Assembly: GCA_030390025.1 (NCBI GenBank)
Contig: CM059432.1
Location: 496,001 to 560,000, forward strand
Direction: 5' to 3'
Length of the DNA stretch: 64,000 nucleotides
From: Squalus acanthias
Lineage: Eukaryota
The position numbers and the translations under genes were made by a program. The notes beneath the pieces were generated by a model. That model made no database searches and was not told the origin of the DNA. It saw nothing but the letters and a program-made list of their open reading frames with translations. Each line of letters starts with the position of its first letter. The first letter of the stretch is position 1. Shown in pieces: positions 4,252-59,200 of this stretch.

Positions 4252-4628
4252 CATTGCCTACAACCCTCCGAGATCTCTGCACTCCTCCAATTCTGGCCTC
4301 TTGCGAATCCCCCCTCTCCCTTCGCCGCACCATTGCTGGCTGTGCCTTCAGCTCTGGGCCTCGGCTCTGGACCCTCCCTAAACACGTTCGCTCCTGCACC
4401 TCTCTCTATTTTAAGACCCTCCTTAAAACCTACCTATTTAACCAACCTTCTAGTCACCCATCCTAATATCTCCTTTTTTGTCTCAGTGTCAGAATTTGTC
4501 TGATTATGCTCCTGTGAAACGCCTTGGGCCGTTATGCTACGTTAGATGCTGTATAAAATGCAGTGTGTTATAAATTTTGTAAGTTGATTACATTCAGTGG
4601 GAGAAAATTCAATACCTCTTGTGTGCAG

Positions 4629-4771
4629 TATCGATACAGCAGCTCTCATGGGAGAGGGGACGGAAACCTCCAGTGATCTCCTGTTAGCCCAAATGCTGCA
4701 GATGGAATTTGACCGAGAATATGACGCACAACTTCGCCGGGAAGAAAATAAACTGAATGGCGACAGCAAAG
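4629..4771 (+). CDS. RIOK3: RIOK3 coding exon (approx. exon 3): [47 protein letters not shown]
   Basis: Acceptor cttgtgtgcag, donor G|gtacga. An alternative acceptor at 4597 is possible but has a different phase. Confidence 0.88.
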
Positions 4772-25700: not shown

Positions 25701-28328
25701 CAACCCTCCGAGATCTCCGCGCTCCTCCAACTCTGGCCTCTTGAGCATCCCCGATTTTAATCGCTCCACCATTGGCGGCCGTGCCTTCAGCTGCCGAGGA
25801 CCGAACTTCCTGAATTCCCTCCCTAAACCTCTCCGCCTCTCTACCTCTCTCTCCTCCTTTCAGACGCTCCTTAAAACCTACCTCTTTGACCAAGCTTTTG
25901 GTCACCTGTCCTAATATCTCCTTACGTGCCTCGGTGTCGAATTTTGTTTGATAATCGCTCCTGTGAAGCGCCCTGGGACGTTTTACTGTCGGCGGGGCAG
26001 TACTGAGGGAGCGCTGCACTATTTCGAAGAGGAGCTGGGGAGTTCTCCCTGGTGCCAATATTTATCCCTCAACCAACACCTAAAAAGAAACAGATGATCT
26101 GGTCATTATCACATTGCTGTGTGTGGGAGCTTGCTGTGCGCAAATTGGCTGCCGCGTTTCCCACATTACAACAGTGACGACACTTCAAAAAGTACTTTGT
26201 TGGCTGTAAACCGCCACATAAATGCATGTCTGACTTATTTTTGAAATTGGTACTTTGGAAATTGATGGTGCGTGATTAACTCATGGTTTTCTTAAGCCAC
26301 ACATGTAGAGTGATCCTTTATGCTGTTCTCCTTATTGCAGTTCTTCCAGAAGTCGGGGGTTGCAGATGCAATGGGCGAACGGGAGCTTTTCAACGCAGTC
26401 TCTGGTTTAGGTATTACAGCGGATAACGAAGTGGACTTCATTGCTGAGGTATAACCTTCTCATGCAATAAAACATGGCTTGTGTTTAAAATCTCAGTGTT
26501 TTAAAGCGTCTTGAGACATTTAACTGCGTTAAAGGCGTTGCATGAATGCAGGTTGTTGAGGGCTCACTTTGTGAACATTTCATTGATTAAACCCGCAACC
26601 TAAACTGTATTTTCCAATAATAAGTATGCATGCGAGGGGAAAATTTAATTGAGCGGGCCAGAATGAAGCAACTCATTTGTTTTGTAGTCGCATAAAATCT
26701 TTTGATTATCTCAGATTATTTCTAGAAATTATTTTTTTTTTTTTTTTTTTTTAAAGAGAACTGCAAATCTGCCAGGCGCGGTTTAACGGACCTAGTTATT
26801 CTGGCTTTATGACAAAACGCAGTTTCAACTTTTATCAGTTGATTAACAAACATTCGGTTGAGAAAACGGCATTCAGTACTTTATGGTGCAAAATTTAAAA
26901 GCAGATTTACGTTGGAGAGAATCTTCTCCCCTAACCTTATTAAAAATGCAGAGGAGGGGGAAACAGCCAAGGTTCCTAGATATTAAGGGGAACAGATAGG
27001 GTAGATCGAGAGAAACTATTTCCACTGGTTGGGGATTCTAGGACTAGGGGGCGTAGTCTAAAAATTAGAGCCAGACCGTTCAGGAGTGAAATTAGGAAAC
27101 ACTTCTATACACAAAGGGTGGTAGAAGTTTGGAACAATTCCACAAACAGCAACTGATGCCAGATCAATTGTTAATTTAAAATCTGAGATTGATAGATTTC
27201 TGTTAACCAAAGGTATTCAGGCTGACACTCCCAGTGCAGTACTGAGGGAGCGCCGCACTGTCGGAGGGGCGGTACTGAGGGAGCGCTGCACTGTCGGAGG
27301 GGCAGTACTGAGGGAGCGCCGCACTCTAGATGGGGCAGTACTGAGGGAGCACTGTACTGTCGGAGGGGCAGTACTGAGGGAGGGCTGCACTGTCGGAGGG
27401 GCAATACTGAGGGAGCGCTGTACTTTCAGAGGGGCAGTACTGAGGGAGCACCGCACTGTAGATGGGGCAGTACTGAGGGAGCACTGCACTGTCGAAGGGG
27501 CAGTACTGAGGGAGCGCCGCACTGTCGGAGGGTCAGTACTGAGGGAGCGCCGCACTGTCGGAGGGTCAGTACTGAGGGAGTGCCGCACTGTTGGAGGGGC
27601 AGTACTGAGGGAGTGCCGCACTGTCGGAGGGGCAGTACTGAGGGAGCGCCGCACTGTCGGAGGGGCAGTACTGAGGGAGCGCTGCACTGTTGGAGGGGCA
27701 GTTCTGAGGGAGCACTGCACTGTCGGAGGGGCAGTTCTGAGGCAGCGCCGCACTGTTGGAGGCCTGGACTAATGATCCGGAGACATGAGATCAAATCCCA
27801 CCACGGCAGCTGAGAAATTTAAATTCAGTTAAATTAAATAAAAAGCGAGTGTTAGTAATGGTGACCACGAAATTACCGGATTGTTGTAAAAACCCAACTG
27901 GTTCACTAATGTCCTTTAGGGAAGGAAATCTGCCGCCCTTACCCGGTCTGGCCTATATGTGACTCCAGACCCACAGCAATGTGGTTGACTCTTAACTGCC
28001 CTCTGAAATGGCCGAGCAAGACACTCAGTTGTATCAAACCGCTTGGAAAGCCCTCACATCACAGACTCCAATGGTTCAAGGCGGCGGCTCACAACCACCC
28101 TCTCGAGGACAATGGAGGATGGGCAATAAATGCTTTCAATGAATAAAAAATTCAAGATGACTGCATTAATTTTAGTACGTCGTCTGCGCTAACGATGTAT
28201 TTGCCTTTTTTAAAAAATGTTTGTAGATCGAAGCTTTGGAGAAAATTAACGAAGACCACGTCCAACAGCGCGGGAAACACATGAAGATCGTGTACGATGA
28301 TTATGATGAAAGTCCAACAGACGATTAA
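4629..28328 (+). CDS. RIOK3: RIO kinase 3, multi-exon gene, 5'-partial (11 coding exons visible, equivalent to human exons 3-13)
   Basis: Exons 4629-4771, 10228-10335, 12603-12712, 14035-14178, 16407-16534, 18244-18426, 22415-22574, 23543-23623, 24265-24354, 26341-26448 and 28227-28328 have AG/GT boundaries and join in frame. They give the RIO kinase motifs [39 protein letters not shown] and WLIDVSQSV, plus the RIOK3-specific N-terminal [18 protein letters not shown]. Confidence 0.97.
4797..5707. repeat. 30-bp minisatellite, about 30 copies (TTCAGTGTCTGCCTGTGTCTCKGGTGTGGA)
   Basis: Clear 30-nt periodicity; one shortened unit near 5461-5478. Confidence 0.97.
5765..6110 (-). mobile_element. 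CR1 LINE 3' fragment
   Basis: [25 protein letters not shown] on the minus strand. Confidence 0.85.
6285..6590 (-). mobile_element. 3' fragment of second CR1-group LINE family (family B, same as 43655-46899)
   Basis: [41 protein letters not shown]. Confidence 0.85.
6806..6848 (+). ncRNA. Minimal type I hammerhead ribozyme motif (Penelope-type)
   Basis: cagggtt-CTGATGA-a-aggcc/atc/gacct-GAAA-c-GTT-aactctg: 7-bp stem I, stem II, palindromic AACGTT in place of stem III. Confidence 0.75.
7260..7472 (-). mobile_element. tRNA-derived V-domain SINE (HE1-like)
   Basis: A box ggtggcatagtgg, B box gggttcgaatc, V-domain tgtgtggagtttgcacattctccccgtgtctgcgtgggttttctccgggtgctccgg. Confidence 0.85.
8620..8657 (-). 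ncRNA. Hammerhead ribozyme motif in the inverted pLTR
   Basis: Reverse complement agtt-CTGACGA-a-aggtc/atc/gacct-GAAA-c-ATT-aact. Confidence 0.65.
9554..9590 (+). ncRNA. Hammerhead ribozyme motif in the pLTR
   Basis: agtt-CTGACGA-a-aggtc/atc/gacct-GAAA-c-GTT-aact. Confidence 0.75.
10228..10335 (+). CDS. RIOK3: RIOK3 exon: (V)[35 protein letters not shown]
   Basis: Polypyrimidine tract plus cactcag acceptor; G|gtaatg donor; in frame with neighbours. Confidence 0.95.
10592..10853 (+). mobile_element. tRNA-headed SINE fragment sharing its 5' region with the 43655-46899 LINE
   Basis: B box gagttcaaatccc; body aaaacccatctggttcact...gggaaggaaacctgc...gtgactccag. Confidence 0.75.
10854..10977. 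mobile_element. hAT-type MITE, truncated
   Basis: Starts caatgttccctctaaat; internal sequence shared with other copies. Confidence 0.7.
11735..12222 (+). mobile_element. CR1 LINE 3' fragment
   Basis: [48 protein letters not shown]. Confidence 0.88.
12603..12712 (+). CDS. RIOK3: RIOK3 exon: (D)[36 protein letters not shown]
   Basis: ttgacag acceptor, gtaagc donor. Confidence 0.95.
12760..13380 (-). mobile_element. tRNA-derived Deu-domain SINE (SacSINE1-like) with internal 33-bp expansion
   Basis: Deu-domain ggatgagatgttaaaccgaggcccc...ggacgtaaaagataccatggcactattt; A/B boxes at 13320-13380; array about 13068-13277. Confidence 0.85.
13793..13934. mobile_element. hAT-type MITE with 8-bp TSD, abutting a second truncated MITE (about 13660-13784)
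   Basis: caacgttccc...gagaacattg; flanks gataagac and gatgagac. Confidence 0.8.
14035..14178 (+). CDS. RIOK3: RIOK3 exon: [48 protein letters not shown]
   Basis: ccttttttag acceptor, gtatgt donor. Confidence 0.95.
14222..14710 (-). mobile_element. CR1 LINE 3' fragment
   Basis: ORF track 14440-14700 and 14231-14425. Confidence 0.88.
14995..15148. mobile_element. hAT-type MITE with 8-bp TSD
   Basis: cgatgttccc...gggagcattg; flanks cttgggaa and attgggaa. Confidence 0.8.
15430..15866 (-). mobile_element. CR1 LINE 3' fragment
   Basis: [10 protein letters not shown]...[20 protein letters not shown]. Confidence 0.85.
16407..16534 (+). CDS. RIOK3: RIOK3 exon: [42 protein letters not shown] (RIO P-loop)
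   Basis: tctcag acceptor, AG|gtatgt donor, STGKES motif. Confidence 0.96.
16580..17125 (+). mobile_element. CR1 LINE 3' fragment with nested SINE tail (about 16835-16945)
   Basis: [29 protein letters not shown]. Confidence 0.8.
17257..18051. mobile_element. Non-autonomous TIR element (PIF/Harbinger-like) with nested CR1 tail (about 17421-17560)
   Basis: ggcctggaatttgc ... caacttccgggcc imperfect TIRs; GC-rich ends and AT-rich centre. Confidence 0.5.
18244..18426 (+). CDS. RIOK3: RIOK3 exon: (S)[60 protein letters not shown]
   Basis: cttctgtag acceptor, AG|gtaggg donor, AIK catalytic lysine. Confidence 0.96.
19470..21048 (-). mobile_element. CR1 LINE, 5'-truncated, frameshifted RT
   Basis: [56 protein letters not shown]. 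Confidence 0.93.
21261..21672 (+). mobile_element. CR1-group family B 3' fragment
   Basis: [18 protein letters not shown]; tail gggatgggcaataaatgc. Confidence 0.85.
21926..22053. mobile_element. hAT-type MITE with 8-bp TSD inside an L2 3' fragment (about 21895-22372)
   Basis: caatgttccc...gggaacgttg; flanks ccgacaac and cctacaac. Confidence 0.85.
22415..22574 (+). CDS. RIOK3: RIOK3 exon: (R)[53 protein letters not shown]
   Basis: attctgcag acceptor, gtaagc donor. Confidence 0.96.
22698..23310. mobile_element. Non-autonomous PIF/Harbinger-like element with 3-bp TSD (ATC)
   Basis: atc|ggcccaaaatttgc ... gcaaaatacagccc|atc; internal hairpin 22884-22944. Confidence 0.6.
23543..23623 (+). CDS. 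RIOK3: RIOK3 exon: [27 protein letters not shown] (catalytic loop)
   Basis: tcttgcag acceptor, gtaaga donor. Confidence 0.96.
24265..24354 (+). CDS. RIOK3: RIOK3 exon: [30 protein letters not shown] (metal-binding loop)
   Basis: cttcacag acceptor, gtatgg donor. Confidence 0.96.
24427..25045 (-). mobile_element. CR1 LINE 3' fragment
   Basis: Same family as 5765-6110 and 53385-53917. Confidence 0.85.
25330..25985 (+). mobile_element. L2 3' fragment containing a MITE at 25454-25572 (TSD cccatcac/cccatcat)
   Basis: [23 protein letters not shown] | [18 protein letters not shown]. Confidence 0.85.
26341..26448 (+). CDS. RIOK3: RIOK3 exon: [36 protein letters not shown]
   Basis: cttattgcag acceptor, gtataa donor. 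Not in the ORF track; translated by hand. Confidence 0.95.
27236..27760 (+). repeat. 33-bp SINE-derived minisatellite (about 16 copies)
   Basis: GCAGTACTGAGGGAGCGCCGCACTGTCGGAGGG units. Confidence 0.93.
27759..28150 (+). mobile_element. SINE composed of the 5' head and 3' tail of the family B LINE
   Basis: Head/body matches the reverse complement of 46570-46865; joined to tail ggttcaaggcggcggctcac...gggcaataaatgc. Confidence 0.8.
28227..28328 (+). CDS. RIOK3: RIOK3 last coding exon: [33 protein letters not shown]
   Basis: tttgtag acceptor, TAA at 28326-28328. Confidence 0.94.
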   Translation: MEALEKINEDHVQQRGKHMKIVYDDYDESPTDD

Positions 28329-35250: not shown

Positions 35251-38200
35251 GTGAGCGGGAGAAAGCGCGGGGACCGAGTGAGAGAGACCGAGAGAAAGGC
35301 CCCGAGCCCGACAAACACCGCCACCTCCTTCATCATCTTCTCAGGCAGTCCCTGGGAACCGAGGATGATTTGCTTCCACACTCACAATCAGTTCTCAGGT
35401 GACTGATGAGTCCAATGCGGGACCTACAGTCTCAGTCACAGGTGGGGCAGACGGTGGTTGAAGGGGCGGGTGGGTGGGGTGCTTGGGTTGACGTGCGCTC
35501 CTTGCGCTGCCTGCGCTTGGCTTCCGCTCGCTCCCGGCGAAGAGACTCGAGGTGTACGGCGCCTTCCCGGATGCTTCTCCTCCACTTTGTGCGGTCTTGG
35601 GCCAGGGATTCCCAGGTGTCAGTGGGGATGCTGCACTTTTTCAAGGAGGCTTTGAGGGTGTCCTTGAAGCGTTTCCTCTGCCCGCCTGGGGCTCTCTTGC
35701 CGTGCCGGAGCTCCGAGTAGAGCGCTTGTTTTGGGAGTCTCGTATCGGGCATGAGGCCAATGTGACCCGTCCATCGGAGCTGATCGAGCGTGGTCAAAGC
35801 TTCGATGCTGGGGATGTTGGCCTGAGCGAGAACACTGATGTTGGTGCGCCTATCCTGCCAATGGATTTGCAGGATCTTGCGGAGGCAGCGTTGGTGGTAC
35901 CTCTCCAGTGCTTTGAGGTGCCAGCTGTACATGGTCCATGTCTCTGAGGTGTACAGCAGGGCGGGTATCACTGCTGCTCTGTAGACCATGAGCTTAGTGC
36001 CGGGTTTGAGGTCCTGGTCTTCAAACACTCTCTTCCTCAGGTGACCGAAGGCTGCACTGGCACACTGAAGGCGGTGTTGGACTTCGTCATCGACGTCTGC
36101 CCTTGTTGACAGTAGGCTCCCAAGGTATGGAAAGTGGTCCACGTTGTCCAAGGCCTCATCATGGATTTTGATAATTGGGGGGCAGTACTGTGTGGCTGGG
36201 GCAAGTTGGTAGAGGACCTTTGTCTTACAGATGTTTAGTGTAAGGCCCATGCTTTCGTACGCTTCGGTGAAGGTGTTGATGATGGTTTGGAGTTTGACCT
36301 CCGAGTGTGCGCAGACGCAAGCGTCGTCTGCATACTGTAATTCAACGACAGAGGATGGGACGATCTTGGATCTGGACTGGAGGTGACGGAGGATGAACAG
36401 TTTCCCGCTTGTTCTGTAGATTAGCTCCACTCCAGCGGGGAGCTTACTGAGGGTGAGATGGAGCATTGCAGCCAGGAAGATCGAGAAGAGCGTTGGTGCG
36501 ATGACATAGCCTTGGTTGACCCCGGTCCGTACGTGAATTGGGTCTGTGGTGGATCCGTTGGTCAGGATCACGGCTTTCATGTCGTCGTGAAGCAGGCGGA
36601 GGATGGTGACAAACTTTTGAGGGCAGCCGAATTTGAGGAGGACACTCCATAATCCCTCATGGTTGACCGTGTCGAAGGCCTTTGTGAGGTCAAAGAAGTC
36701 CATGTTCAGCGGTTGGTGCTGTTCCCTGCATTTCTCTTGTAGTTGACGCGCGGTGAAGATCATGTCCATTGTGCCCCTTAGTGGGTGGAATCCGCATTGC
36801 GACTCTGGGAGGAGCTCTTCAGCCACTGGGAGAAGGCGATTAAGGAGGATTCTTGCGATGACTTTCCCTGTGGCAGACAGCAGGGAAACTCCTCTGTAAT
36901 TACCGCAATCGGACTTGTCACCTTTCTTGAAGATGGTCACGATTACGGCGTCTCTGAGATCCCCTGGCATGCTGCTCTCCTTCCAAATAAGAGAAATTAG
37001 TTCATGTATTCGCACCAATAGTGCTTCTCTGCCATGTTTTAGCGCCTCGGCGGGGATTCCATCTGCTCCTGAGGCCTTGTTGTTCTTCAGTTGTCAGATG
37101 GCCTTTTCAACCTCATCTCACCACCAACCGCAGGGGGCAGTACTGAGGGAGCGCCGCACTGTCGGAAGGGCAGTACTGAGGGAGCGCCGCACTGTCGGAA
37201 GGGCAGTACTGAGGGAGCGCCGCACTGTCGGAAGGGCAGTACTGAGGGAGCGCCGCACTGTCGGAAGGGCAGTACTGAGGGAGCGCAGTACTGAGGGAGC
37301 ACCGCACTGTCGGAAGGGCAGTACTGAGGGAGCGCGCAGCGCAGCCCGTTAAAGGGGCCATGCGACGCAAAAATAATTATGGGGAACATTGGTACTCCCT
37401 GTTGTAATGTGGGAAACACGGCAGCCAGTTTACACACAGCAAGCTCCCACAAACAGCAATGTGATAAAGACCAGATAACCTGTTTTAGTGATGTTGGTTG
37501 AGGGATAAATATTGGCCCCAGGACACCGGGGAGAACTCCCCTGCTCTTCTTCGAATAGTGGCCATGGGACCTTTTACATTCACCTGAGAGCGCAGATTGT
37601 GCTTCCATTTAACATCTCATCTGAAAGACGGCACCTCCGACAGTGCAGCACTCCCTCAGTACTGCACTGGAGTGTCAGCCTGGGTTATGGGCTCAAGTCT
37701 CTGGAGTGGGACTGGAACCCACAACCTTCTGACTCAGAGGCGAGTGTGCTACCCACTGAGCCACGGCTGACATCGGGTTCTATGATTCTGTAGCTTTTTA
37801 CTCTAGAACATGCCTGTTTGATTGAAGTATTTAAAATGATGAAGGGTCTAGACTGTCCATGTGGATGGATGATTTCAATTAGATAGGTTTGGGAGAATTA
37901 GGAAAACATGCAGCACGAACTCTGCACTTTTCTAGAATATGAAGACCCAGCTCTCTCAGCCTATTATGATAACTAAGAGTTTTTAAACTACTCATTAATC
38001 TGGTAGCCCTCCTCTGGACCTTTTCCTGGGCTAATAACAGTGCTGTTGTGAGGTTAGACAAAGATTGCTTATGGTCTAGATACAACAACAACAACTTGTA
38101 TTTATATAGCGCCTTTAACGTAGTAAAATGTCCCAAGGTGCTGCACAGGAGTATTTTAAGACAAAAATTTGACACTGATCCACATAAGGATAAATTAGGG

Positions 38201-41200
38201 CAGGTGATCAAAAGCTTGGTCAAAGAAGTAGGTTTTAAGGAGCGTCTTAAAGGAGGAAAGAGAGGTAGACTTAATGCACATAGAAAGTCTTCCTATATAA
38301 AATCAGAAAATGCTGGAAACACTCAGCAGGTCAGGCAGCATCTGTTTCCCCTGGCTGGAGAGAATGACGAAGGGTCATCGACCTGAAACGTTTCTCTCTC
38401 CACAGATGCTGCTTGACCTGCTGAGTGTTCCCAGCATTTTTTGTTTTTTATTTCAATTTCCAGCATCCTCAGTATTTTGCCTGTGCAGAAAGTCTTCCTC
38501 CTTTTTTGAGGGAGATTTACTCTGGTAGATGTTCACTAGACTGATTCCTGGGATGGGGGGATTGCCCTATGAGGAGAGATTGAGTAGACTAGGCCTTTAC
38601 TCCCTAAAGTTTAGAAGAATGAGAGGTGATCTCATTGAAACATACAAAATTCTTACAGGGCTTGACAGGGTGGATGCTGGGAGCATGTTTCCCCTGGCTG
38701 GAGAGTCTAGAACCAGGGGTCACAGTCTCAGAATAAGGGGTCGGCCATTTAGGACTGAGATGAGGAGAAATTTCTTCACTCAGAGGGTGGTGAATCTTTG
38801 GAATTCTCTACCCCAGAGGACTGTGGAGGCTCAGTCATTGAGTATGTTCAAGACAGAGATTGATAGATTTGTGGATATTAAGGGAATCAAGGGATACGGG
38901 CATAGTGTGGGGAAGTGGAGTTGAGTTCGAAGATCAGCCATGATCTTATTGAATGGCGGAGCAGGCTGGAGGGGCCGAATGGCCTGCTCCTATTATGTTC
39001 TCTGCATCTGACGTCAGTGTAGCTGACCTGGGAGTGCAAGGTGCTGATAGTGGGTGATCGATCCATTCCCAATTGGTGATGATTGCATGCAGATGCTAAA
39101 AGCAAAATTCATTTATAAATTCTCCCAGTTGAAGTCTTTGGTTCCGATGTAGAACGTGTATCCCTTGCAGTACCTGCAAGCAGACTTTCAGCCCTGAGGA
39201 TACATTCGTTGGTGAGATAACAGATGACATTGTAGGCTTCTGAAGAACACCCCTTACTTCCTGCTTCCTGATCTTGCGCCGTATGCAGTGCTCCACCTTT
39301 TTGTTTCCTGTTACCAGTAGAAGCTGCTGAACTGATTCAGTGTTTATTTTTAATCATTCTCGGGATGTGGCCGTGGCTGGCATCTGTTGCCCTTGAGAAG
39401 GTGGTGGTGAGCCGCCGCCTTGAACCGCAGCAGTCCGTGTGGTGAAGGTGCTCCCGCAGTGCTGTTAAGGAGGGAGTTCCAGGATTTTGACCCAGCGACG
39501 ATGAAGGAACAGCCAAGTTGGGACGCTGTGTAACTTGGAGGGGAGCTTTGTGGTAACGATGTTCCCATACTGCCCTTGTGTCTCAAAGACTGAGTCTGAG
39601 CAGGCCAGCACACTTGCCTCCTACAGGAAGCCAACAACCAAGAGAGACTCTGACCCTTTTCCCAGCTTATGGTGGAGTCACTAGTGTTCTCTCTCCCCCC
39701 TGCGCATTAGACGCGGTGCCCACCTCTAACCTGCTCAACCATGAGTCCTGATGCTACCGTTTCTACCTGCTGCTGCCGCCTCTAACTTGGCCACTCGCCT
39801 GAGTACCGCTGCTGCTGCCACTCACCACCCAAGGTACAGAGACAATGAAAAACAGAAGAGTAAGAAAAGCAAAACACAAGTAAAGGAGCAGAGATGGGGG
39901 TGAGTTGCTAGCAAAAGAGACGAGTGAATGCAGAGAAACAGTGAATATGAAAAGAAACAAGTGAATCCAGACTCGAGTATTCCAATGCTCTCCTGGCCGG
40001 CCTCCCATCTTCCACCCTCCCTAAACTTTAGCTCATCCAAAAGTCTGCTGCCCTGTGTCCTAACTTGCACCAAGTCCCGTTCACCCATCACCCTTGTGCT
40101 CGCTGACCTACATTGGCTCCTAGTCCGGCAGCGACTCGATTTTAAAATTCTCATCCTTGTTTTCAAATCCCTCCATGGCCTTGCCCCTCCCTATCTCTGT
40201 AATCTCCTCCAACCCTCCGAGATCTCTGCACTCCTCCAATTCTGGCCTCTTGCGTATCCCTGATTATAATCGCTCCACCATTGGTGGCGTGCCTTCAGCT
40301 GCTGAGGCCCTAAGCTCTGAAATTCCTTCCCTAAACCTGTCCGCCTCTCTACCTCTCTCTCCTCCTTAAAACTGACCTCTTTTCCACCCTTCCTAATACG
40401 TATTATGTTAAAGACGCTATATAAATACAAGTTGTTGTTGTGAAAAGAGAGAGAGACTGAGGTGAAGGCAGAGAGAGAGAGCAATGTAGGGTGCATTTAC
40501 AGTCGAACTGTATCACGGGGGTTTCTGCTATGTATCCACGTTAGTGTTAGTGTAAATGCATCATTAATTGGCACAGTCCACTCACTTGTTGCATCACAAG
40601 GATCTGTCCTGTAAAAAGTTGAACACTCTTGCACGACTGTGCGTGCGACATTTTTATATTCTCACATCCGCAGTCCTGTCGCCTCTGAGTGCGATTGTCA
40701 GCGAGCAGCCAATTAGGTTGCAGTGTTGTGCTGTTGAATTGCATCCACTCGGAATTGGCTGAGCTTGTCCAAACTCATTTCACACAGGACCATTGCAGTT
40801 AAGAGTGAGCCAGGACCTTCCTGTCCCATCCGTCTGGAAATATCAATTACTGGGCAGGGCACAATTTAATGTACTGCTAACGACTACTTCTCTGAAAGCA
40901 GGGATAATACAATTATCAAACGCAAACATAACTTGATTTTATAATTAGTGTCACAGCTTTAGCTGCATTCAATTTAGTGTCTACCTTGCCTCAGTGGGCA
41001 GCACTCCCACCTCCGAGTCAGAGGGTCATGGGTTCAAGCCCCACTCCAAAGACTTGAGCACGTAATCCAGGCTGACACACCAGTGTAGTACTGAGGGAGA
41101 GCCGCACTGTTGGAGGGGCAGTACTGAGGGAGCGCCGCACTGTCGAAGGGGCAGTACTGAGGGAGAGCCGCACTGTCGGAGGGGCAGTACTGAGGGAGAG

Positions 41201-44200
41201 CCGCACTGTCGGAGGGGCAGTACTGAGGGAGAGCCGCACTGTCGGAGGGGCAGTACTGAGGGAGAGCCGCACTGTCGGAGGGGCAGTACTGAGGGAGCGC
41301 CGCACTGTCGGAGGAACAGTACTGCGGGAGTGCTGCACTGCCAGAGGGACAGTGCTGCGGGAGCACTGCACTGTTGGAGGGGCAGTACTGAGGGAGCACC
41401 GCACTGTCGGAGGGACAGTAACGAGGGAGCGCCGCACTGTCGGAGGGGCAGTACTAAGGGAGCACCACACTATTGGAGGGACAGTAACGAGGGAGCGCCG
41501 CACTGCCAGAGGGACAGTACTGAGGGAGCGCTTCCCTGTCGGAGGGACAGTACTGAGGGAGCGCTTCCCTGTCGGAGGGACAGTACTGAGGGAGCGCTTC
41601 CCTGTCGGAGGGACAGTACTGAGGGAGCGCTTCCCTGTCGGAGGGGCAGTACTGAGGGAGCGCTGCACTGTCGGAGGGACAGTACTGAGGGAGCGCTTCC
41701 CTGTCGGAGGGGCAGTACTGAGGGAGCGCTTCCCTGTCGGAGGGACAGTACTGAGGGAGCGCTTCCCTGTCGGAGGGACAGTACTGAGGGAGCGCTTCCC
41801 TGTCGGAGGGACAGTACTGAGGGAGCGCTTCCCTGTCGGAGGGACAGTACTGAGGGAGCACTGCACTGTCGGAGGGGCAGTACTGAGGGAGCGCTTCCCT
41901 GTCGGAGGGACAGTACTGAGGGAGCACTGCACTGTCGGAGGGGCAGTACTGAGGGAGCACTGCACTGTCGGAGGGGCAGTACTGAGGGAGTGCTGCTCTG
42001 TTGGAGATGCCATCTTTTGGATGAGATGTTAAACCAAGGCCCCATCTAACCTCTTGGGTGAACGTAAAAGATCCCATGGCACTATTTTGAAGAAGAGCAG
42101 GGGAGTTCTCCCCGGTGTCCTGGCCAATATTTATCCCTCAACCGACATCACTTTAAAAAAAAAAACAGATTATCTGGTCATTATCACATTGCTGTGGGTG
42201 GGATCTTGCTGTATGTAAATTGGCAGCTGTCTTTCCTACATTATAATTGTCATTACACTTCAAAAGTACCTAATTGGCTGTGAAGCGCTTTGGGATGTCC
42301 TGACATTGTGAAAGGCCCTGTAGTCTTTCATTCTCTTCTTTCTTAGTGCAACATAAGTAAAATTCAATCTCTCGGGTCGCAGTTCATGTTTGCCAAAGTT
42401 AGCCTCTGCCGCATATGTAGAAAGTGAACCGGTAGAAATTATAAGTTTCCAGCCTCCAAGTCTATAACTTGGCTGATAGAGACATACGACCTATTGGATT
42501 AGAGAATAGATCTTGTTTTAAAAAGTACATTTTCCATTTTCTTTTGATAGGTGTTTGCTGTTCGCTCTGGGGGAGCCACTGGTGTGGTGGTTAAAGGACC
42601 CGATGACAAGAGCTGCGTCTCCTTCAGGTAAAGCAATCGCGAAACCAGAGTGCAGATATTTAAGATCACACGTGCTGGAGACATCAAGTAGAAATTGGAA
42701 GGACATTTTATAAACACGTTCTCGCTCATCTTAACAAACAGGTCACAAAGACTTGATGTGTCATCATTAAAAACTAATCTTAAAAAGAACATCCTCTGGC
42801 TTTGCAAAATAATGTTGATGTGAGGTTATTCACCTTGTTAGGAAGAATAGAAAAACAAAATATTTTTTAAATGGTGAGAAACTATTAAGAACTGGGAGAA
42901 GTTAAGAGATTTAACAGTTTATAAGCAAGTACAGAACCAGGGAAAAGGCGGGGGGGTTGGGGGGCGGAGGGGAGGAAAGAACAAAGGGGGAAGGTCTGTG
43001 ATAGGTTGGAAGGCAGGAGAGATTAAATGCCAAAAGGGATGATGGTGCGAGGCAAAAGGAGGTGGTAATGGGACAAGTAAAGAATCAAAAGATGGAGCTG
43101 TAAATGGCAACAGCAGAACCGTTACCAGCACTTCGTTACTGTTCGAAATAAATGGGAGCAGTGGTTATGATCAATGTTCCCGCTAAGGTGCACCGCACGG
43201 CGCGGCCGCGCAGTAATCTGCTTTTACACTGTAAATACTGCGCATGCGCAGAAATTGAAAGGGACCGCGCATTAAAAGGAACAGGTCGTGCAGAACAAAG
43301 CGCAGCTCACGGACCATTGGGTATGATCTGTGTAAAGATATATCTCGTGTCTTTGTACAAAGTGGACCTGATTGGTGGTGAATTAGCTGTGAATACTTAA
43401 ACATTCTATATTCTTTTAAAACAGCCCGTCGTACCCCTGGCACCTGCACATCCAGCGAAGAAACTCACTGGTTCCTGATTGTGGTGGTGTATTGCCACAG
43501 GGCTGTGTGATAGTTCTTGACATGATAGTAACGGTTTAGTACCTTCCTTTAGAACCTTCATTTCCACTTTTTAACTCGAGCTATTAATAATAAAGAGAAG
43601 AGGTCTTGTTTTGATGATAAAATGTTTGCTGTGCGCAGATTGGCTGCCCCGTTTGTTTTTTAAAATTCGTTTATGGGATCTGGGCGTCGCTGGCAATGCC
43701 AGCATTTATTGCCCATCCCTAGTTGCCCTTGAGAAGGTGGTGGTGAGCCGCCTTCTTGAACCGCTGCAGTCCGTGTGGTGAAGGTGCTCCCACAGTGCTG
43801 TTCGGGAGGGAGTTCCAGGATTTTGACCCAGCGACGATGAAGGAACGACGATATACTTCTAAGTCAGGATGGTGTGTGACTTGGAGGGGAACTTGGAGGT
43901 GGTGGTGTTCCCATGCGCCTGCTGCCCTTGTCCTTCTAGCTGGAAGAGGTCGCAGGTTTGGGAGGTGCTGCCGAAGAAGCCTTGGCGAGTTGCTGCAGTG
44001 CATCTTGTAGATGGGACACACTGCAGCCACGGTACGCCGGTGGTGGAGGGAGTGAATGTTTAAGGTGGTGGATGGGGTGCCAATCAAGCGGGCTGCTTTG
44101 TCCTGGATGGGGTCAAAATTCTAGTGTTGTTGGAGCTGCACTCATCCAGGCAAGTGGAGAGTATTCCATCACACTCCTTACTTGTGCCTTGTAGATGGTG

Positions 44201-47200: not shown

Positions 47201-50200
47201 TTCTGCCGAAATGGCAGATAAAAAAACATCGTATAACGTTTTATCTGCTAATATCACCAACAATTTCTGGGTTTGTAAGACAACAAAATGCACACTTGAT
47301 AGTTTCATCTCAGTTCATAGTTATTAGATTTCTAGAGCAGTGGCTCTCAAACTGGGGTCCGCGGAGAAGTTGCAGGGGGTCCCCAACAACAACAAGACCC
47401 GCATCATTCCCAAACACCTGCAACTGGCCATCCGCAACGACGAGGAGTTCGACAAGCTGCTGGGGCGGGTAACCATCGCTCAGGGCGGGGTGCTGCCGAA
47501 GAAACCCTGCGCTGGGAGCGTCCAAGAATGAATCTAATAACCCGAAGGCTCTTTTCAAAGCCACCCACTGTATCTGCGAAGAGCTGGTTACTGGTCTGAA
47601 GGGAGTCGGAGAGATCTTGAGATAATTTAACAATAAATTGCCCTGTTTTAGACCTGTCCACGTGCGTTTTCAGTTCCCTGTCTCGATTGCACTACTGCTC
47701 ACACACATCCCCCTCTAGCTAGTGAACAATTCAAAATTAGCGAAGAATCAACAGTTTTGAAAATTCCGCCACCTTTGGTTTCATGAATAATTTTTAAGAG
47801 TACACTCCGGTGCATAAATGATAACTATATAAAGATATTCGGAGCTGATGAATTAATTTAGTAATAAAAGGGCCTGATTCGATTATGCTTTGTTTTGGAT
47901 TTAGATAGTTTGAATTCTGGATCAGTTAGAATCTAATCCCAGGACCTAGAGTAAGTGCAGGAAGAGGCCACTCTTGGGCTGTGTGTTCCTTTCCTGTTTT
48001 CTGTTTGTACTGCACTGTTTCTAGACTCGTCTCGAGTTCTTTTTAATTTTGCTGCTTTAGCACTGAATTAAAACGGAGGCTTTTGCTAATTTCAAATTAG
48101 ATTTTTTTTTAAATGGTTCGTAGTTAAAATTCGTAGATGAGCAGCAGTTTTTAGGACGGTACTTAAAAGTAATGTATCAAGTAGGAAAGTGACCAACATG
48201 TCAAACATCACACCAAGGACAGACAGACAGACTCTGCAGTGCGAAACAGGCACAACCATCTCACTGTATCTGATTAAATACCTGTTTTCTTAAAAACATT
48301 ATTAAAGTAGTCTTTACATGCAGCACTTTCATATTATGAGTATGATATAGTATTATCATTTAGATTGGGGGGGGGGGGGGGGGGTTCCGTGATTACTAAT
48401 CCATTTGAAAAGGGGTCCTTCAACCAAAAAAGTTTGAGAGCCACTGATCTAGAGGGATAGAATTAAAAAGCGGAAAAGTTATTTTAAGAGTACATTCCGG
48501 TATACAGAACGTTGGTTAGATCACACCAGTTCTGGTCTCCATATTATAAAAAGGATATAGAGGCACTGGAGAAGGTGCAAGAAAGCTTTCCGAGCTGAGA
48601 GGTTATACCTAACAGGAAAGACTGAACAGGCTGTGGCTCTTTTCTCCAGAAGACTGAGGGGTGATCTGATAGAGGTCTTTAAGATTATGAAAGGGTTTGA
48701 TAGGGTAGACGTAGAGAAGATGTTTCCACTTGTGGGGGAGACCAGAACTAGAGGCCATCAATATAAGACAGTCACTAATAAACCCAATAGGGAATTCAGG
48801 AGAAACTTCTTTACCCAGAGAGTGGTGAGAATGTGGAACTCGCTACCACAGGGAGTGATTGAGGCGAATAGTAAAGATACATTTAACGGGAAGCTGGATA
48901 AACACATGAGGGAGAAAGGAACTGAAAAGTTGTAGCCTGCTGTTCCGAGTTAACATTTCAGCTCAGCGTTCTGATGAAAGGTCATTGACCTGAAATGTTA
49001 ACTCTGTTTCTCTCTCCACACATGCTACCTGACCTGCTGAGTATTTCCAGCATTTTCTGGTTTTATCTGTGATGAGAATGTAGAACGTGCCACCACAGGG
49101 AGTGGTTGAGGTGAATAGCGTAGATGCATTTAAGGGGAAGCGAGATAAGCACATGAGGGAGAGAGGAATAGAAGGTTATGTTGATGGGGTGAGATGAAGA
49201 GGGTGGGAGGAGGCTCGTGTGGAGCAGAAACACCAGCTTGGGCCAAATGGCCTGTTTCTATGCTGTAAATTCTGTGCTGAAGGCGCTGCAGAACCAATAC
49301 AGGCCACATGGTGTCACTCTTCCAACCTCAGTACTTCCTGACGACAGAACTTGTGACTACTTATAAGACATTGGGCCGAAAATTGATCCCGGGACGCGAG
49401 AGTACGCACTGCATACTCTCGCGTATTCCCACTCCAATTGCCGGTTTTCTGCATGCCCTGCGCATGCGCTGAAAACCGGCAATTGCTCTTCCGAAAAGGG
49501 GGCGGGGCCTGGGTGCATCGCGTGCGCGCTACAGGCTGCGCGCACGCTGTGCACTTCATGCTGTGGACGCGCAGGTAAGTAGGGAAGATTTTGGAAATGT
49601 AAAAAGGAGGAGTAAGACCCGCTTTTAAAAGGTAAGTAGTGAATTAAGTATTTTTTTGAATTTTTTTTTACAGGTATATCTTTTTTAGAGACTTTAAAGA
49701 CAGGTAAGTTTATTTTTATAACTTTTTAAAAGATTTTAAATTTTTTCAAAAATTTAACTTTTTATTTAAAATGGTTAATTTAATTAACTATACTTATTTT
49801 ATTAATGTGATGGTTTTTTTTTAAATTTAATTGAGGTTTAGCTGTTATTTTGGGGGGGTGTAAGATTCATAAGTCTCACAGCCATGCTGTGAGACTTATG
49901 AATGGAAGATGGTGTGCTGCCATTGGCTCTAACTGAGTCACGTGATCCCACAGCTCGCACGAATTCACTACGCCGCTGGGATACGCAAGCCCAGCACAGC
50001 TGATGTCTGGAACATCAAGTTCGTGCGAGCTGGATCAGAAAAAGCATAAGCGAGGTGAGACATCGCGGGGAAGGCTTACCCCCGCGGGAACAGTGCGAGA
50101 TCAATTTCTGGGCCATTGTTTATTCGGGAATCCCAGAAAACATGGAGCAAGAACAAGCATAAAAATCTCTTCCACCTACACGCTCGCCCTGGGGTGGATG

Positions 50201-53200: not shown

Positions 53201-56200
53201 TCCCAGGTATTGCCTGACAAGCGTAGTTTAAAGCTACTAAAGAATCAGAGCATCAATGTTAACTGGTATATGTACTGCCCAGAAACTGCTGTCCTCCTCC
53301 TGTCTACCACCGTGCACGGGAACGTTCTTCAGCCATTTTATTTCAGGGTAAGTCGGGCGTTGTTCTCTGATCTCATCATCTGCAGCCTGTGCACAGTTCT
53401 GGTCTCCATATTGTAAAAAGGACATAGAAGCACTGGAGAAGGTGCAAAAAAGATTTACTAGAATGATACCAGAACTGAGAGGTTAAACCTATCAGGAAAG
53501 GTTGAACAGGCTGGGGCTGTTTTGTCTGGAAAAGCAAAGGCTGAGGGGTGACCTGATAGAGGTCTTTAAAATTATGAAAGGGGTTTGATAGGGTAGACGC
53601 AGAGAAGATGTTTCCACTTGTGGATGAGACCAGAGCTAGGGGCCATAAATATTAGATAGTCACTAATAAATCCAATAGGGAATTCAGGAGAAACTTCTTT
53701 ACCCAGAGAGTGGTGAGAATGTGGAACTCGCTGCCACAGGGAGTGGTTGAGGCGAATAGCAGAGATGCACTTAAGGGGAAGCTGGATAAGCACATGAGGG
53801 AGAAAGGAATAGAAGGATATGCTGATGGGGTGAGATGAAGTAGGGTGGGAGGAGGCTCGTGTGGAGCATAAACACCGGCACAGACCAGTTGGGCCGAATG
53901 GCCTGTTTCTGCGCTGTCAGTGGGTAGCACTCTCGCCTCGGAGTCCGAAGGTTGTCCCACTCCAGAGACTTGAGCACAAAAACCTAGGCTGACACTCCAG
54001 TGCAGTGCTGAGGGAGTGCTGCACTGTCGGAGGTGCCGTCTTTCGGATGAGACGTTAAACCGAGGACCAGTCTGCTCTCTCAGGTGGACGTAAAAGATCC
54101 CATGGCACTATTTTGAAGAAGAGCAGGAGAGTTATCCCCAATGTCCTGGCCAATATTTAGCCCTCAATCAACATAACAAAAACAGATTATCTGGTCATTA
54201 TCACATTGCTGTTTGTGGGAGCTTGCTGTGTGCAAATTAGCTGCCGTGTTTCCTACATTACAACAGTGGCTACAATTCAAAAGTACTTCATTGGCTGTAA
54301 AGCGCATTGGGACATCTGGTGGTCGTGAAACGGTATCTAGTGGGGTGTCACAGGGATCGGCTGGGGCCTCAACTATTTACAATCTACATTAATGACTTGG
54401 ATGAAGGGACCGAGTGTAATGTAGCCAAGTTTGCGGATGATACAAAGATGGGTGGGAAAGCAAGTTGTGCAGAGGACTCAAAGAATCTGCAAAGGGATAT
54501 AGACAGGCTAAGTGAGTGGGCAAACATTTGGCAGATGGAGTATAATGTGGGAAAGTGCAAGGTTATCCACTTTGGCAGGAAAAATAAAAAAGCAAACTAT
54601 TATTTAAATGGAGAGAGATTACAAAATGCTACAGTTCAAAGGGACCTGGAGGTCCTCGTGCATGAAACACAAAATGTTAGCATGCAGATACAGCAAGTAA
54701 TCAAAAAGGCAAATGGAATTATTTAAATGGCCTTTATTTCAAGGGGGTTGGAGTATAAAAACAGGGAAGTCCTGCTAGAACTGTACAGGGTATTGGTGAG
54801 ACCACTCCTTGAGTACTGCGTACAGTTTTGGTCTCCTTATTTAAGGAAGGATATACTTGCATTGGAGGCAGTTCAGAGACGGTTCACTAGGTTAATTCCA
54901 GAGATGAGGGGGGGTTGACTTATGAAGAAAGGTTGAGCAAGTTGGGCCTATACTCATTGGAATTTAGAAGAATGAGAGGTGATCTTATTGAAACATATAA
55001 GATACTGAGGGGGCACGACAGGGTAGATGCAGAGAGGATGTTTCCCCTCGTGGGGAAATCTAGAACTCGGGGGCACAGTTTCAGAATAAAGGGTCGCCCT
55101 TTTAGAACTGAGATGAGGAGGAATTTCTTCTCTGAGGGTCGTAAATCTGTGGAATTCTCTGCCCCAGAGAGCCGTGGAGGCTGGGTCATTAAATACATTT
55201 AAGGTGGAGATAGACAAATTTTTGCAAGATAAGGGAGTGAAGGGTTATGGGGGGCGGGCAGGGAAGTGGCTTTGAGCCCAAGATCAGCCATGATCTTATT
55301 GAATGGCGGAGCAGGCTCGAGGGGCCAAGTGGCCTATTCCTGCTCCTATTTCTTATGTTCTTTCTTATGAAAGGCGCTATATAAATGCATGTCTGTCTGT
55401 CTCTCTTTCTCTTTCTCTGCCTCTCTTTCTCTGTCTCTCTGTCTAAATACTTTGTAATACTTTTCTGCACTTTCATGCACTTTGAGTTTCTTGAAACATA
55501 TGTAGTTTATTATTTTCTTAGTAGAAAGGTGTCTGAAATCCTAAATGCTGTACAACACCCCCTCCATTTCTCAAAATATGCTGTTTGGGATTGGCAGCTT
55601 AATTTTTTCCATAAAGTAAATAAATGTGAGCAGAAATATTTATTGATCGAAGTGCTGGGCTGAGAGGAGGAGAAAGATGAGGAATGCAACAGTGAAAGAC
55701 ACCAATACCCCAGGAGGGAGGTTCTCGGTGACCGGGAATTCCATGTCCGGGATGATGAACACGGGAATGATGCGGTAAATGAATAATTGGGATGTGGGCA
55801 GAGGTGAAGGATCCAGAATTGAAGGGGTAATGTAATGAGTACAAAGTGAATCTTGTGGCAGAAGAATTTCATGGTCCTTAACTTTGGAAAAAGTGGAAGT
55901 GTTGAATCTGAATTTTAATGGAATAGTAATTTTCTCAAGTTAATAATTAGATAAAAGCTGTGTGAAGATGAAGTTTTTGTGTGCTTTTATTTTAATAAAG
56001 TGCCAACCCAGATTGTACAATTTTTGTGAGTTAAAATTCCTAATATTTTAAAAGGAGTGTTTACAACCATCTGCAACATAAGAACATAAGAATTAGGAGC
56101 AGGAGTCGGCCATACGGCCCCTCGAGCCTGCTCCACCATTCAATAAGATCATGGCTGATCTTCGACCTCAACTCCACTTTCCCTCCCAATCCCCATATCC

Positions 56201-59200
56201 CTTGATTCCCCAAGAGTTCAATAATCTATCGCTCTCTGTCTGGAATATACTCAACGGCTGAGCCTCGGCAGCCCTCTGGGGAGGAGAATTCCAGAGATTC
56301 ACAGCCCTCTGGGGAGGAGAATTCCAGAGATTCACAGCCCTCTGGGGAGGAGAATTCCAGAGATTCACAACCCTCTGGGGTAGAGAATTCCAGAGATTCA
56401 CAACCCTCTGGGGTAGAGAATTCCAGAGATTCACAACCCTCTGGAGTAGAGAATTCCAGAGATTCACAGCCCTCTGGAGTAGAGAATTCCAGAGATTCAC
56501 AGCCCTCTGGGGAGGAGAATTCCAGAGATTCACAGCCCTCTGGGGAGGAGAATTCCAGAGATTCACAGCCCTCTGGGGAGGAGAATTCCAGAGATTCACC
56601 ACCCTCTGGGGAGGAGAATTCCAGAGATTCACAACCCTCTGGGGAGGAGAATTCCAGAGATTCACAGCCCTCTGGGGAGGAGAATTCCAGAGATTCACAA
56701 CCCTCTGGGCAGAGAATTCCAGAGATTCACAGCCCTCTGGGGCAGAGAATTCCAGAGATTCACAACCCTCTGGGGAGGAGAATTCCAGAGATTCACAACC
56801 CTCTGGGGAGGAGAATTCCAGAGATTCACCAGCCTCTGTGCGCTCAAAGATCATTAGAGACAAAAACCTGGTCCATTTTCTAAGCGGGTAAATTTCTGTA
56901 TCGCAACGGGCTGCCTTTTAAATTTGACATTCCCGCCTACTCCCACTCCTATTTCTTATGTGCTTACAGCCAGCCCCCCCTGTGTCGCAATAAACTGATG
57001 TGGCACAAATGTTTAGATGTGTATTGAGACAAAGCGATTTGATTTTACTTTCCAGAGTGGAACAATGTCCAAAATGCCAAAGTTTGAAATCGAACTACCT
57101 GCATCTCCCAAATCTGGCAGCCTGAGTCTCTCTGACAGGGATATTATAATGGCCACTATGTAAGTAAAAGGCTGCTGTCCTTCTTAAAGACCAGATTGCA
57201 GATTGGTGTCTACCTTTCACGCTTCAAGAGAGCGCCTGTAACAATGCTACCTCCCCGAGACCGTGCTACTCCATAGTATGAATTTAAAAATTAAAAACAT
57301 GCGATTTTAAAATTCTCATCCTTGTTTTCAAATCACTCGACGGACTCCTCCTCCCTGTCTCTGTAACCTCCAGTCCCACAACCAGTGTTCTCTGTAAGCT
57401 GGTGTGTGGCCGCACAGCAGTCTGTGAAGGTGTCGCACAGGCTGCTCACAGGCTGTCCCATTGAAGGTACTGTGTATGCGCGGCCGCGCTGCAAATTTAA
57501 AGGTACCACGGATTTAAATAAACAGGCCACGTGCCCACGGTAATATTTAGAGGGAGCATTGCCCGCAACCCTTCCGAGATCTCTGCGCTCCTCTAATTCT
57601 GGCCTCTTGAGCATCCCAGATTTTGATCGCTCAATCATTGGTGGCCGTGCCTTCAGCTGCCTGGGCCCTAAGCTCTGGAATACCCTCCCTAAACCTCTCC
57701 GCCTCTCTCTCTCCTCCTTTTAAGATGCTCCTTAAAACCGACCTCTTTCACCAAGCTTTTGGTCGTCTGCCCTAATAACTCCTTATGTGGCTCGGTGTCA
57801 AATTTTTATTTTGATAATCGCTTCTGTGAAGCACCTTGGGACGTTTTACTACTTTAAAGGCGCTATAGAAATAAAAGTTGTTGTTGATTTTACAAAGACC
57901 TTCATCTGTGCATGAGTCTGACTATTCAGTTACCGCGCGTTCTGTACGTGTAAGAATGCTAACCAGCCCCTCGCACTGTCAGTTATTGACACTTACCCTG
58001 TTTCCCGCAATATATCCTAATGGCAGGGTTAATTTTAAGAATGCAGTGGTAATTTTTTAATCTGTCTTTTTCGCAAGATATGGGCAACTTTACGTCCTTT
58101 ATCTGAAGCACCAACCAAGAACTCCCAATAATCCTGGGGCTGAAGTAATCTTGTACCATTTACCCAGGTAAGACTTGCTGATTTGGGCTCACGTTTAGTC
58201 TGCACTGTATTTTGGGATGATTTCCTGAATGTATCTTGCATTTCAATTGCAGGGAAGGACAGTGTAAGAAAATGCATGTATTGAAACTAAATACCACAGG
58301 GAAATTTGCTTTGAACGTTGTTGATAACTTGGTTGTGGTGCATCACCAGAGCTCTCAGGTAAGGAGTCTGCACTCCGCCTCTCTCCTACTTGCTATTCGC
58401 TGATTATCTTGGAAGGGTAAAAATTACGAATGGCCTCGACTTTCACTCTTTAAATTTAGTGAATGTAATTGTTAAAGTTCTACTGCAAGCTCTTTCTCTC
58501 TTTCTTTCTCTCTTCCTATCTTTCCTTCTCTTTCTTTCCTTCACTACATCTCACATCTAAACATAGACAGGCGGACACGTGGCAGATGAAATTTAGCACA
58601 CATATGCGAAGTGATACATTTTGGTCGAAAGAATGAGGAGAGGAAATATAAACTAAATGGTACAACCCTAAAGGGGGTGCATGAACAGAGAGACCTGGGG
58701 GTATGTGTGCACAAATTGTTGAAGGTGGCAGGGCAGGTTGAGAAAGCGGGTTAAAAAAGCTTATGGGATCCTGGGCTTCATGAATAGAGGTATAGAGTAC
58801 AAAAGCAAGGAAGTTATGATGAACCTGTATAAAACACTGGTTTGGCCTCAGCTGGAGTATTGTGTCCAATTCTGGGCACCGCACTTTAGGAAGGATGTGA
58901 AGACCTTAGAGAGGGTGCAGAAAAGATTGATGATTCCAGGGATGAGGGACTCCAGTTACGTGGATAGACTGGAGAAGCTGGGGTTGTTCTCCTTAGAGCA
59001 GAGAAGATTGAGAGGAGATTTGATTGAGGTGTTCAAAATTATGAGGGGTCTGGAGAGGGTAGATAGAGAGAAACTGTTCCCATTGGAAGGGTCGAGAACC
59101 AGAGGACACAGATTTAAGGTGATTGGCAGAAGAACCAAAGGCGACATAAGAAAAAACGTTTTTACTCAGCGAGTGGTTAGGATCTGGAATGCGCTGCCTG

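Follow-up and report, generated by a model that had tools for sequence, protein, structure and literature searches.

How the 3' end of a histone H2A gene came to lie inside a DNA transposon, in a region that holds no histone cluster, is the question raised by a 64,000-nucleotide stretch of the Squalus acanthias genome (contig CM059432.1 of assembly GCA_030390025.1, here C8:496001-560000 of a 3.71-Gb assembly with 3882 contigs). The whole stretch is referred to as the window, and positions without a contig name are window positions. A first-pass annotation, made from the sequence alone, had described a hAT transposon carrying captured H2A sequence between its terminal inverted repeats (TIRs), and every part it had observed was found in the sequence at the places it gave. 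Our analysis of this element, of its copies elsewhere in the genome and of the histone loci related to its cargo indicates, with a probability of about 0.88, that it belongs to an old, multicopy Pack-TIR (Pack-hAT) family, which originated from a single capture of histone DNA by template switching and was then dispersed by transposition.

The element (47338-48446, or C8:543338-544446) is a non-autonomous hAT of 1109 bp, and its proposed role as the vehicle is borne out by 8-bp target-site duplications (TSDs), 16-bp TIRs and the probable tail of a hAT transposase (Table 1). The TIR starts with CAGTG, which fits the YARNG-type hAT terminal motif as it is quoted in PMC3014272 (Novick et al., 2011), and the copies of the family carry the same TIR with 0-3 changes. 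Taken alone, the 16-mer is weak evidence, as at least two matches were obtained in 26 of 100 shuffles when up to 3 mismatches were permitted.

The cargo amounts to about 620 bp and comprises H2A codons 73-129, the histone stem-loop, the ACCCA motif, the histone downstream element (HDE) and about 410 bp of flank, so that all components of the H2A 3' end reported in the first reading are present. The H2A piece is a fragment only, running from codon 73 to the end, and not a gene; it matches Pfam Histone_H2A_C (PF16211) with an E-value of 9.8e-10 and 38.5 bits (cut-off, 20). The purine-rich motif GAAGAGCTGG beyond ACCCA is taken by us to be the HDE, an element that is removed from mature histone mRNA. 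What follows it had been described as further unique DNA; alignment to histone loci identifies it instead as the downstream flank of a histone cluster. The window copy has lost about 29-30 bp near 47920 that are common to other element copies and to the histone loci, and its H2A fragment displays an altered tail and a 24-bp in-frame deletion (NIQAVLLP). This deletion, located at about 47495 between two TGCTGCC direct repeats, is also present in the element copy L010 and in an H2A locus of a histone cluster (L055, C18:914299), and has the look of recurrent slippage.

A BLASTN search of the element against its own genome, as the first-pass annotation had proposed, returned 1320 first-look candidates, 40 of which were scored, and recovered the same element and the same junctions at other loci. 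Near-full-length copies are found on other contigs (L002-L005), with L002 covering query positions 1-1109 and L003-L005 ending 7-119 bases short on one side. Incomplete or interrupted copies were also obtained (L006-L012). Among all these copies, identity with the window copy is 77-85%, gaps counted. The 5' junction is identical at 11 loci, and the 3' junction, with the same 29-bp filler, at 9. Together, both sets represent 12 verified distinct loci (L001-L007, L008 with L056, L009, L010, which is the same locus as L012, L011 and L053) on at least six contigs and with independent flanks. Four complete copies, namely those of the window, L002, L003 and L007, differ in their flanks and TSDs, the latter being ATATAAAT and GTATAAAT in L002 (7 of 8 bases matching), CCATAAGC and CCATTGGC in L003 (6 of 8) and TTCTAAAC on both sides in L007 (8 of 8). 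Since these junctions are shared by loci with different TSDs, there was one capture, followed by transposition, and the multicopy nature suggested earlier is confirmed.

Two further lines of evidence establish the single origin of the family. Compared with real genes, all 9 aligned copies lack the same 9 bp of the H2A tail, a deletion by which the original stop codon was lost, and have a G-to-A substitution in the stem-loop, on its 3' arm. Moreover, in a maximum-likelihood tree of the cargo built from 8 element and 10 histone rows (leaving out L006, L008, L011, L052, L053, L054, L056 and L057, rows with large insertions or less than 450 bp of coverage), the 8 element copies constitute a single clade with 100/100 support, star-like and with tip lengths of 0.044-0.091.

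The number of loci was extended with a search restricted to the non-coding cargo (47600-48026), for which all 34 candidates were scored. Eighteen non-histone loci were found, on C1, C3, C4, C7, C8, C9, C11, C12 and C13, bringing the family to up to 18 cargo loci, four of which are represented as table rows only (C11:41870037, C9:105864832, C7:93726662 and C1:142057285); four C12 matches of only 52-69 bp were excluded from this count. The search also returned C18:940264, the best histone match (75%), and ten repeats of C3410, and none of the element copies among the 34 scored candidates lies on C18 or C3410. Element copies surface as H2A C-terminal matches outside the histone clusters (4 of 150 PF16211 matches), and they should be masked as transposon cargo rather than annotated as histone genes or pseudogenes. 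One copy, L010, contains at 2156-2270 a near-perfect hairpin insertion of about 110 nt, which is similar to miRNA precursor models (MIR1507 at 49.7 bits; gathering score, 73) and is probably a palindromic miniature inverted-repeat transposable element nested in that copy.

The transposon part of the element belongs to a second, very abundant set of sequences, the parent hAT-N family. At least 18 parent copies that were fetched align with the element only over query positions 1-45/54 and 689/690-1109. Ten of them retain both TIRs and measure 1031-1630 bp, mostly about 1.2 kb; their TSDs are of 8 bp with a central TA in 10 of 10 cases, three being perfect (L024, L030 and L020) and five more agreeing at 6 or 7 of 8 bases. 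Judged from these alignments, the window element derives from a hAT-N of the parent type by replacement of the interior (query positions about 46-689). The 3' part of the parents ends in an open tail, LNKLSNITPRIDRLCSEKQAHPSH, followed by TGA, with SNITPRIDRLCSEKQAHPSH as the intact family form up to the stop, and the ACAG duplication previously noticed in the window's transposase tail corresponds to a 4-bp insertion relative to intact copies of the parent family.

An autonomous partner was searched for with a 29-aa tail query, which yielded 129 matches among 150 scored candidates, one of them a relic with an open frame of 149 aa that ends in this tail (L061). Its neighbours in the ESM-Atlas are hAT-derived clusters bearing the names SCAN domain-containing protein 3 (SCAND3), FAM200B-like and GTF2IRD2-like (26 of 30 hits belonging to one family set, top score 0.97), and a comparison of this relic with PDB sequences gave no match. 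Together with the SPIN-like TIR and TSD, the SCAND3/FAM200/GTF2IRD2-like neighbours are consistent with a Charlie/Buster-type assignment. Pairwise Kimura two-parameter distances over the common 3' part are 0.117 among 18 parents, 0.128 among 8 element copies and 0.122 between both groups; given this similarity, the amplification of the Pack derivative appears to be roughly contemporaneous with the parent burst, for a sample of parents that were the most similar to the window copy. The left subterminal region carries a variable number of palindromic GGGGTCCGCGGACCCC-like units (L003, L013, L018, L020, L023 and L028), some copies having one unit more than the window copy, and GGGGTCC recurs near the right end; this palindromic unit is possibly a transposase-binding subterminal repeat.

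The two capture junctions are distinct in nature. At the 5' junction, a 6-bp microhomology, CCGCGA, is common to the parent element and to the H2A gene: the parent reads ...GGTCCGCGA up to the junction and AACATTG beyond it (in a longer form, ...GGGGGTCCGCGA and AACATTGACC), the H2A gene reads ...GCCCGCGA and CAACAAG (in a longer form, ...GCGGCCCGCGA and CAACAAGAAG), and the element combines both as ...GGGGGTCCGCGACAACAAGA.... By a rough estimate, a microhomology of 6 bp would be expected at about one in a thousand random junctions. At the 3' junction, the histone homology stops near 47996 and parent sequence is back at 48026, the filler standing between them. Tan et al. (2021; PMC8277862) give microhomology at one breakpoint or more in 67.6% of Pack-TIR cases and present gap-filling and FoSTeST models, and their text describes microhomology on one side with filler on the other as signatures of template switching in Pack-TIR formation.

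These features can be accommodated in the following scenario. A non-autonomous Charlie/SPIN-like hAT of about 1.2 kb lost its interior, retaining about 46-60 bp on the left and about 420 bp on the right, and in place of the interior it received the 620 bp or so of DNA whose template was a replication-dependent histone H2A locus. This capture most likely took place by template switching during DNA synthesis, either in the repair of a double-strand gap left by excision or at a stalled fork; synthesis would have switched into the H2A gene at the CCGCGA microhomology, and the switch back would have left the 29-bp filler. Gap-filling and FoSTeST both appear to fit the junctions. The resulting chimera, which retained both TIRs and subterminal regions, then spread to at least 12 loci on other contigs, each with an 8-bp TSD of its own, and would have been moved in trans by a transposase of the family. 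All copies have since decayed neutrally, the window copy being an inert relic. The data demonstrate the single origin, the transposition, the genomic type of the source and the decay, and the repair or replication step and the trans-mobilising transposase are the parts of this scenario that we infer. Judging from the short left end retained, this hAT lineage would need no more than about 46-60 bp of left-end sequence in cis.

A composite or alternative transposition, in which two parent hATs flanking an H2A 3' region in a histone cluster moved jointly with the DNA between them and later lost their inner halves, would also place histone DNA between two hAT ends. The parent family is very abundant, as the 1320 first-look candidates illustrate, and an insertion near histone genes is plausible. 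Against this, neither junction coincides with a TIR tip: the left one is situated about 46 bp and the right one about 420 bp inside the hAT, and the left one falls on microhomology. Two additional precise deletions would be required, and no parent hAT was seen within ±1.5 kb of any of the 15 histone-cluster loci examined; three apparent parent matches near histone loci correspond to another repeat that is nested in one parent copy. We therefore consider such a history very unlikely.

With regard to the source of the cargo, alignment to the histone clusters, which had also been proposed, retrieved relatives of the donor on C3410 and C18 rather than the exact donor. The cargo aligns with H2A genes and their downstream DNA over query positions 41-653/658 in 10 repeats of C3410, whose H2A genes encode an intact 129-aa H2A, and at C18:940012. 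Other H2A genes of C18 match the coding part (90-91%) and the stem-loop region only, and this restriction of the flank match to C3410 and C18:940012 identifies a particular class of histone repeat. The homology to the histone loci runs about 430 bp past ACCCA and hence beyond the cleavage site, which means that mature mRNA was not the template; chromosomal DNA is the likelier one, and a read-through transcript that had escaped processing the less likely. The source is thus of genomic type, as the first reading had held in proposing genomic DNA or unprocessed RNA, and the evidence points to capture from genomic DNA and not to a retrocopy of mature mRNA. The locus C18:940012 (L042) is part of a minor cluster spanning C18:0.85-0.94 Mb, which is separate from the large arrays located at C18:6.0-7.5 and 9.8-10.2 Mb.

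The same alignments bear on the proposal that a 5'-truncated retrocopy, reverse-transcribed from an H2A mRNA or read-through transcript, entered a resident hAT-N and then transposed with it. The block does begin within the coding sequence, as a 5'-truncated retrocopy would, and it lies in sense orientation. Nevertheless, the homology to the loci continues for those 430 bp and includes the HDE, which is cut from mature mRNA; neither a 3' A-run nor a direct repeat bounds the block in any of the 9 aligned copies, so that the separate TSD of the H2A segment, which the first-pass annotation had named as refuting evidence, was absent; and the 5' junction falls on a 6-bp microhomology typical of template switching. 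We regard this retroposition as highly improbable. Classification as a processed pseudogene was likewise rejected, since the block runs past the mature 3' end without poly(A) or a TSD of its own.

The condition of the cargo was assessed through its stem-loop and its coding part. The Rfam model Histone3 (RF00032; gathering score, 34 bits) was run on 9 element and 3 histone loci: the values are 39.7-41.1 bits for real H2A loci, 25.5 for the window copy and 21.6-25.5 for six of the nine copies, whereas the other three gave no match at E <= 1. An Rfam scan of the whole window at gathering thresholds returned 0 matches. The window stem-loop is derived from a histone stem-loop and is degraded. Further changes within the 16 nt of the stem-loop occur in 5 of 9 copies, at a rate about that of the rest of the element. 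Summed over 9 copies, the coding fragment has accumulated 39 synonymous and 83 nonsynonymous codon changes, with stops in three copies and frame-breaking indels in six; the L001 row of this tally is an alignment artefact at its 24-bp deletion and was not counted as a frameshift. The cargo is in neutral decay, and no present-day function is indicated.

A co-opted module, with the captured stem-loop and HDE directing histone-type 3'-end processing of host or element transcripts, has in its favour that stem-loop, ACCCA and purine-rich element are all present at the correct spacing, and that some Pack-TIRs are described as transcribed in chimeras (Tan et al., 2021; PMC8277862). The stem mismatch in 9 of 9 copies, each of which is below the Histone3 threshold or undetected, the additional stem-loop changes at about the general rate of the element and the neutral decay of the coding part make this scarcely credible, and the dispersal of functional histone 3'-processing signals by the element, as suggested earlier, finds no support on the same grounds. 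There is a slim chance that at the time of amplification the element carried a working SLBP/U7-binding 3'-end module and that some copies might still terminate host or element transcripts; this would mean that a transposon had spread sites for replication-coupled 3' processing of non-polyadenylated RNA through a vertebrate genome. Finally, the reading as an assembly chimera, or as a histone pseudogene that lies next to a hAT fragment by chance, has only its a-priori possibility and the weak 16-mer test in its favour and was discarded, as the whole structure recurs with both junctions at 12 independent loci on at least six contigs with their own flanks and TSDs, which also settles the concern about a chimera that accompanied the first reading.

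A 20-nt string, TTTTAAGAGTACAYTCCGGT, occurs both inside the cargo (47792-47811) and 36 bp beyond the right TIR, in a LINE-like repeat (LINE, long interspersed nuclear element; 48482-48501), and none of 100 shuffles gave any match to it at 3 mismatches or fewer. Within the element, this string includes an insert of about 12 bp, at about 47799-47810, that is missing from the histone loci and from two copies. It may represent a small templated insertion from the LINE-like repeat family.

Several observations weigh against a single capture of genomic histone DNA by template switching followed by transposition. No exact donor exists in the assembly: the closest locus, C18:940012, reaches only 75% over the flank, is separated from the ancestor of the element copies by about 0.18 substitutions per site, stands between the element and C3410 clades, and is an H2A pseudogene with a stop in the N-terminal tail (…KRKNRR, stop, SSGQ…), the remainder reading as H2A. 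Loss or homogenisation may have removed the true donor, and its absence may be an effect of the concerted evolution of histone arrays. No parent hAT within ±1.5 kb of the 15 histone loci examined marks a site of capture, the 3' junction shows no demonstrable microhomology and has filler instead, and an RNA template from a read-through transcript is formally conceivable; misprocessed read-through histone transcripts exist. As for mobilisation, no intact transposase was found among the 150 scored candidates, the longest tail-ending open frame being of 149 aa, and the relic L061 scores 21.2 bits (E 2.5e-4) against Dimer_Tnp_hAT (PF05699), 0.2 bits under the cut-off of 21.4. The age comparison, in turn, is biased by the choice of parents most similar to the window copy.

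The family thus presents host DNA between the two sides of one TIR family, a parental copy elsewhere in the genome, and multiple copies with different TSDs, as in a Pack-TIR. Histone orphons, or dispersed pseudogenes, are solitary histone-gene pieces outside the tandem clusters; unlike these, the pieces studied here have an identifiable hAT as vehicle and consist in every case of one and the same 3' fragment, bounded by identical junctions. The element is a real, old, multicopy Pack-hAT, and Pack-TIRs are already known in animals: the survey of Tan et al. (2021; Nat Commun 12:4280, PMC8277862) lists 370 of them in 100 animal genomes, four of which are multicopy. As described there, Pack-hAT-N8_XT of Xenopus tropicalis, with three copies, resembles the present family in being a non-autonomous hAT-N with internal host DNA and breakpoint microhomology, with breakpoints inside the transposon, several copies with distinct TSDs and copies far from the parental gene. 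According to the same text, multicopy Pack-TIRs lie distal to the parental gene, and the lack of parent hATs near the histone loci and of element copies on C18 and C3410 fits this arrangement. In contrast to the three copies of the frog element, 12 verified and up to 18 loci are found here; the cargo of about 620 bp compares with a median of 224 bp in that survey; and the family is old, with tips 4-9% diverged, whereas the survey was aimed at young cases. The cargo also differs from the cases presented there in being the 3' third of a histone gene with RNA-processing signals and flank. The word 'shark' does not occur in the main text of PMC8277862, and we found no description of a histone 3' end as cargo of a hAT or Pack-TIR in the open-access literature searched.

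Plant Pack-MULEs and Pack-TYPE elements, as presented in PMC8903248 and PMC6379663, are likewise non-autonomous DNA transposons that acquire and amplify gene fragments; in contrast to the present family, they are Mutator and CACTA elements of another kingdom and often contain several fragments, whereas a single contiguous fragment is carried here. The account of SPIN by Novick et al. (2011; PMC3014272), who place it near the mammalian Charlie elements, offers a likeness at the ends and in copy numbers: the TIR is identical to that of SPIN, CAGYGGTTCTCAACCT, at 15 of 16 positions, the TSDs fit NYYTARRN (e.g., TTCTAGAG in the window), and non-autonomous copies are far more numerous than autonomous ones. 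Host gene fragments are not described as cargo in that account of SPIN, and the word 'captured' is absent from its text.

The family stands out for its copy number, for the size and nature of its cargo and for the clarity of its junctions, and at 12-18 copies it possibly exceeds in size every other multicopy Pack-TIR family so far observed in vertebrates. Because only four multicopy Pack-TIRs are given for the 100 genomes surveyed (Tan et al., 2021; PMC8277862), it adds a strong case for the amplification of captured host DNA by cut-and-paste elements in vertebrates. Donor relatives and the parent element both persist in this genome, and the family further provides an unusually clean record of host-DNA acquisition.

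Table 1. Features of the Pack-hAT element and its insertion site in the window.
Feature	Positions	Strand	Remarks
TSD, left (8 bp), TTCTAGAG	47330..47337	.	7/8 bases equal to right copy
5' TIR (16 bp), CAGTGGCTCTCAAACT	47338..47353	+	exact inverted match to 48431-48446
hAT 5' end (TIR and subterminal), common to parent hAT-N family	47338..47380	+	query 1-45/54
5' capture junction	47381..47386	+	ancestral CCGCGA; CCCCAA in window copy
H2A C-terminal coding fragment	47385..47531	+	starts at codon D73 of 129-aa H2A; ends with TGA 47529-47531
Histone stem-loop, GGCTCTTTTCAAAGCC	47547..47562	+	GGCTCT TTTC AAAGCC; one C-A stem mismatch
ACCCA	47563..47567	+	directly after stem-loop
Purine-rich HDE-like motif, GAAGAGCTGG	47578..47587	+	11-20 nt beyond ACCCA; aligns with same position in real H2A loci
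Histone-cluster downstream flank, captured	47588..47996	+	about 410 bp
29-bp filler, 3' capture junction	47997..48025	+	in all element copies; matches neither histone loci nor parent
hAT 3' part, common to parent family	48026..48446	+	query 689/690-1109
Transposase tail remnant (last ~20 codons)	48201..48264	+	window copy: 4-bp insertion frameshift, stop lost
3' TIR (16 bp)	48431..48446	-	exact reverse complement of CAGTGGCTCTCAAACT
TSD, right (8 bp), ATCTAGAG	48447..48454	.	overlaps start of abundant LINE-like repeat

Concerning the insertion site, the left flank yielded one useful paralogue (C11:71836077, 76% identity), which is devoid of CTAGAG at the TSD position and diverges exactly at the insertion point without continuing into the right flank, and an empty site was therefore not obtained from it. 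The right flank (48448 onward) belongs to the very abundant LINE-like repeat, with 3949 first-look candidates. Many of its paralogues begin aligning exactly at the insertion point, and the position of the hAT insertion is the 5' edge of this repeat copy. The repeat encodes a C-terminal motif of LINE reverse transcriptase, as do open reading frames elsewhere in the window. The window is rich in repeats, including LINE reverse-transcriptase open reading frames such as those at 35432-37093 (553 aa) and 3186-4433 (415 aa), and four minisatellite arrays, at 4588-5765, 27125-27818, 41018-42137 and 56168-56917, have several frames open on both strands.

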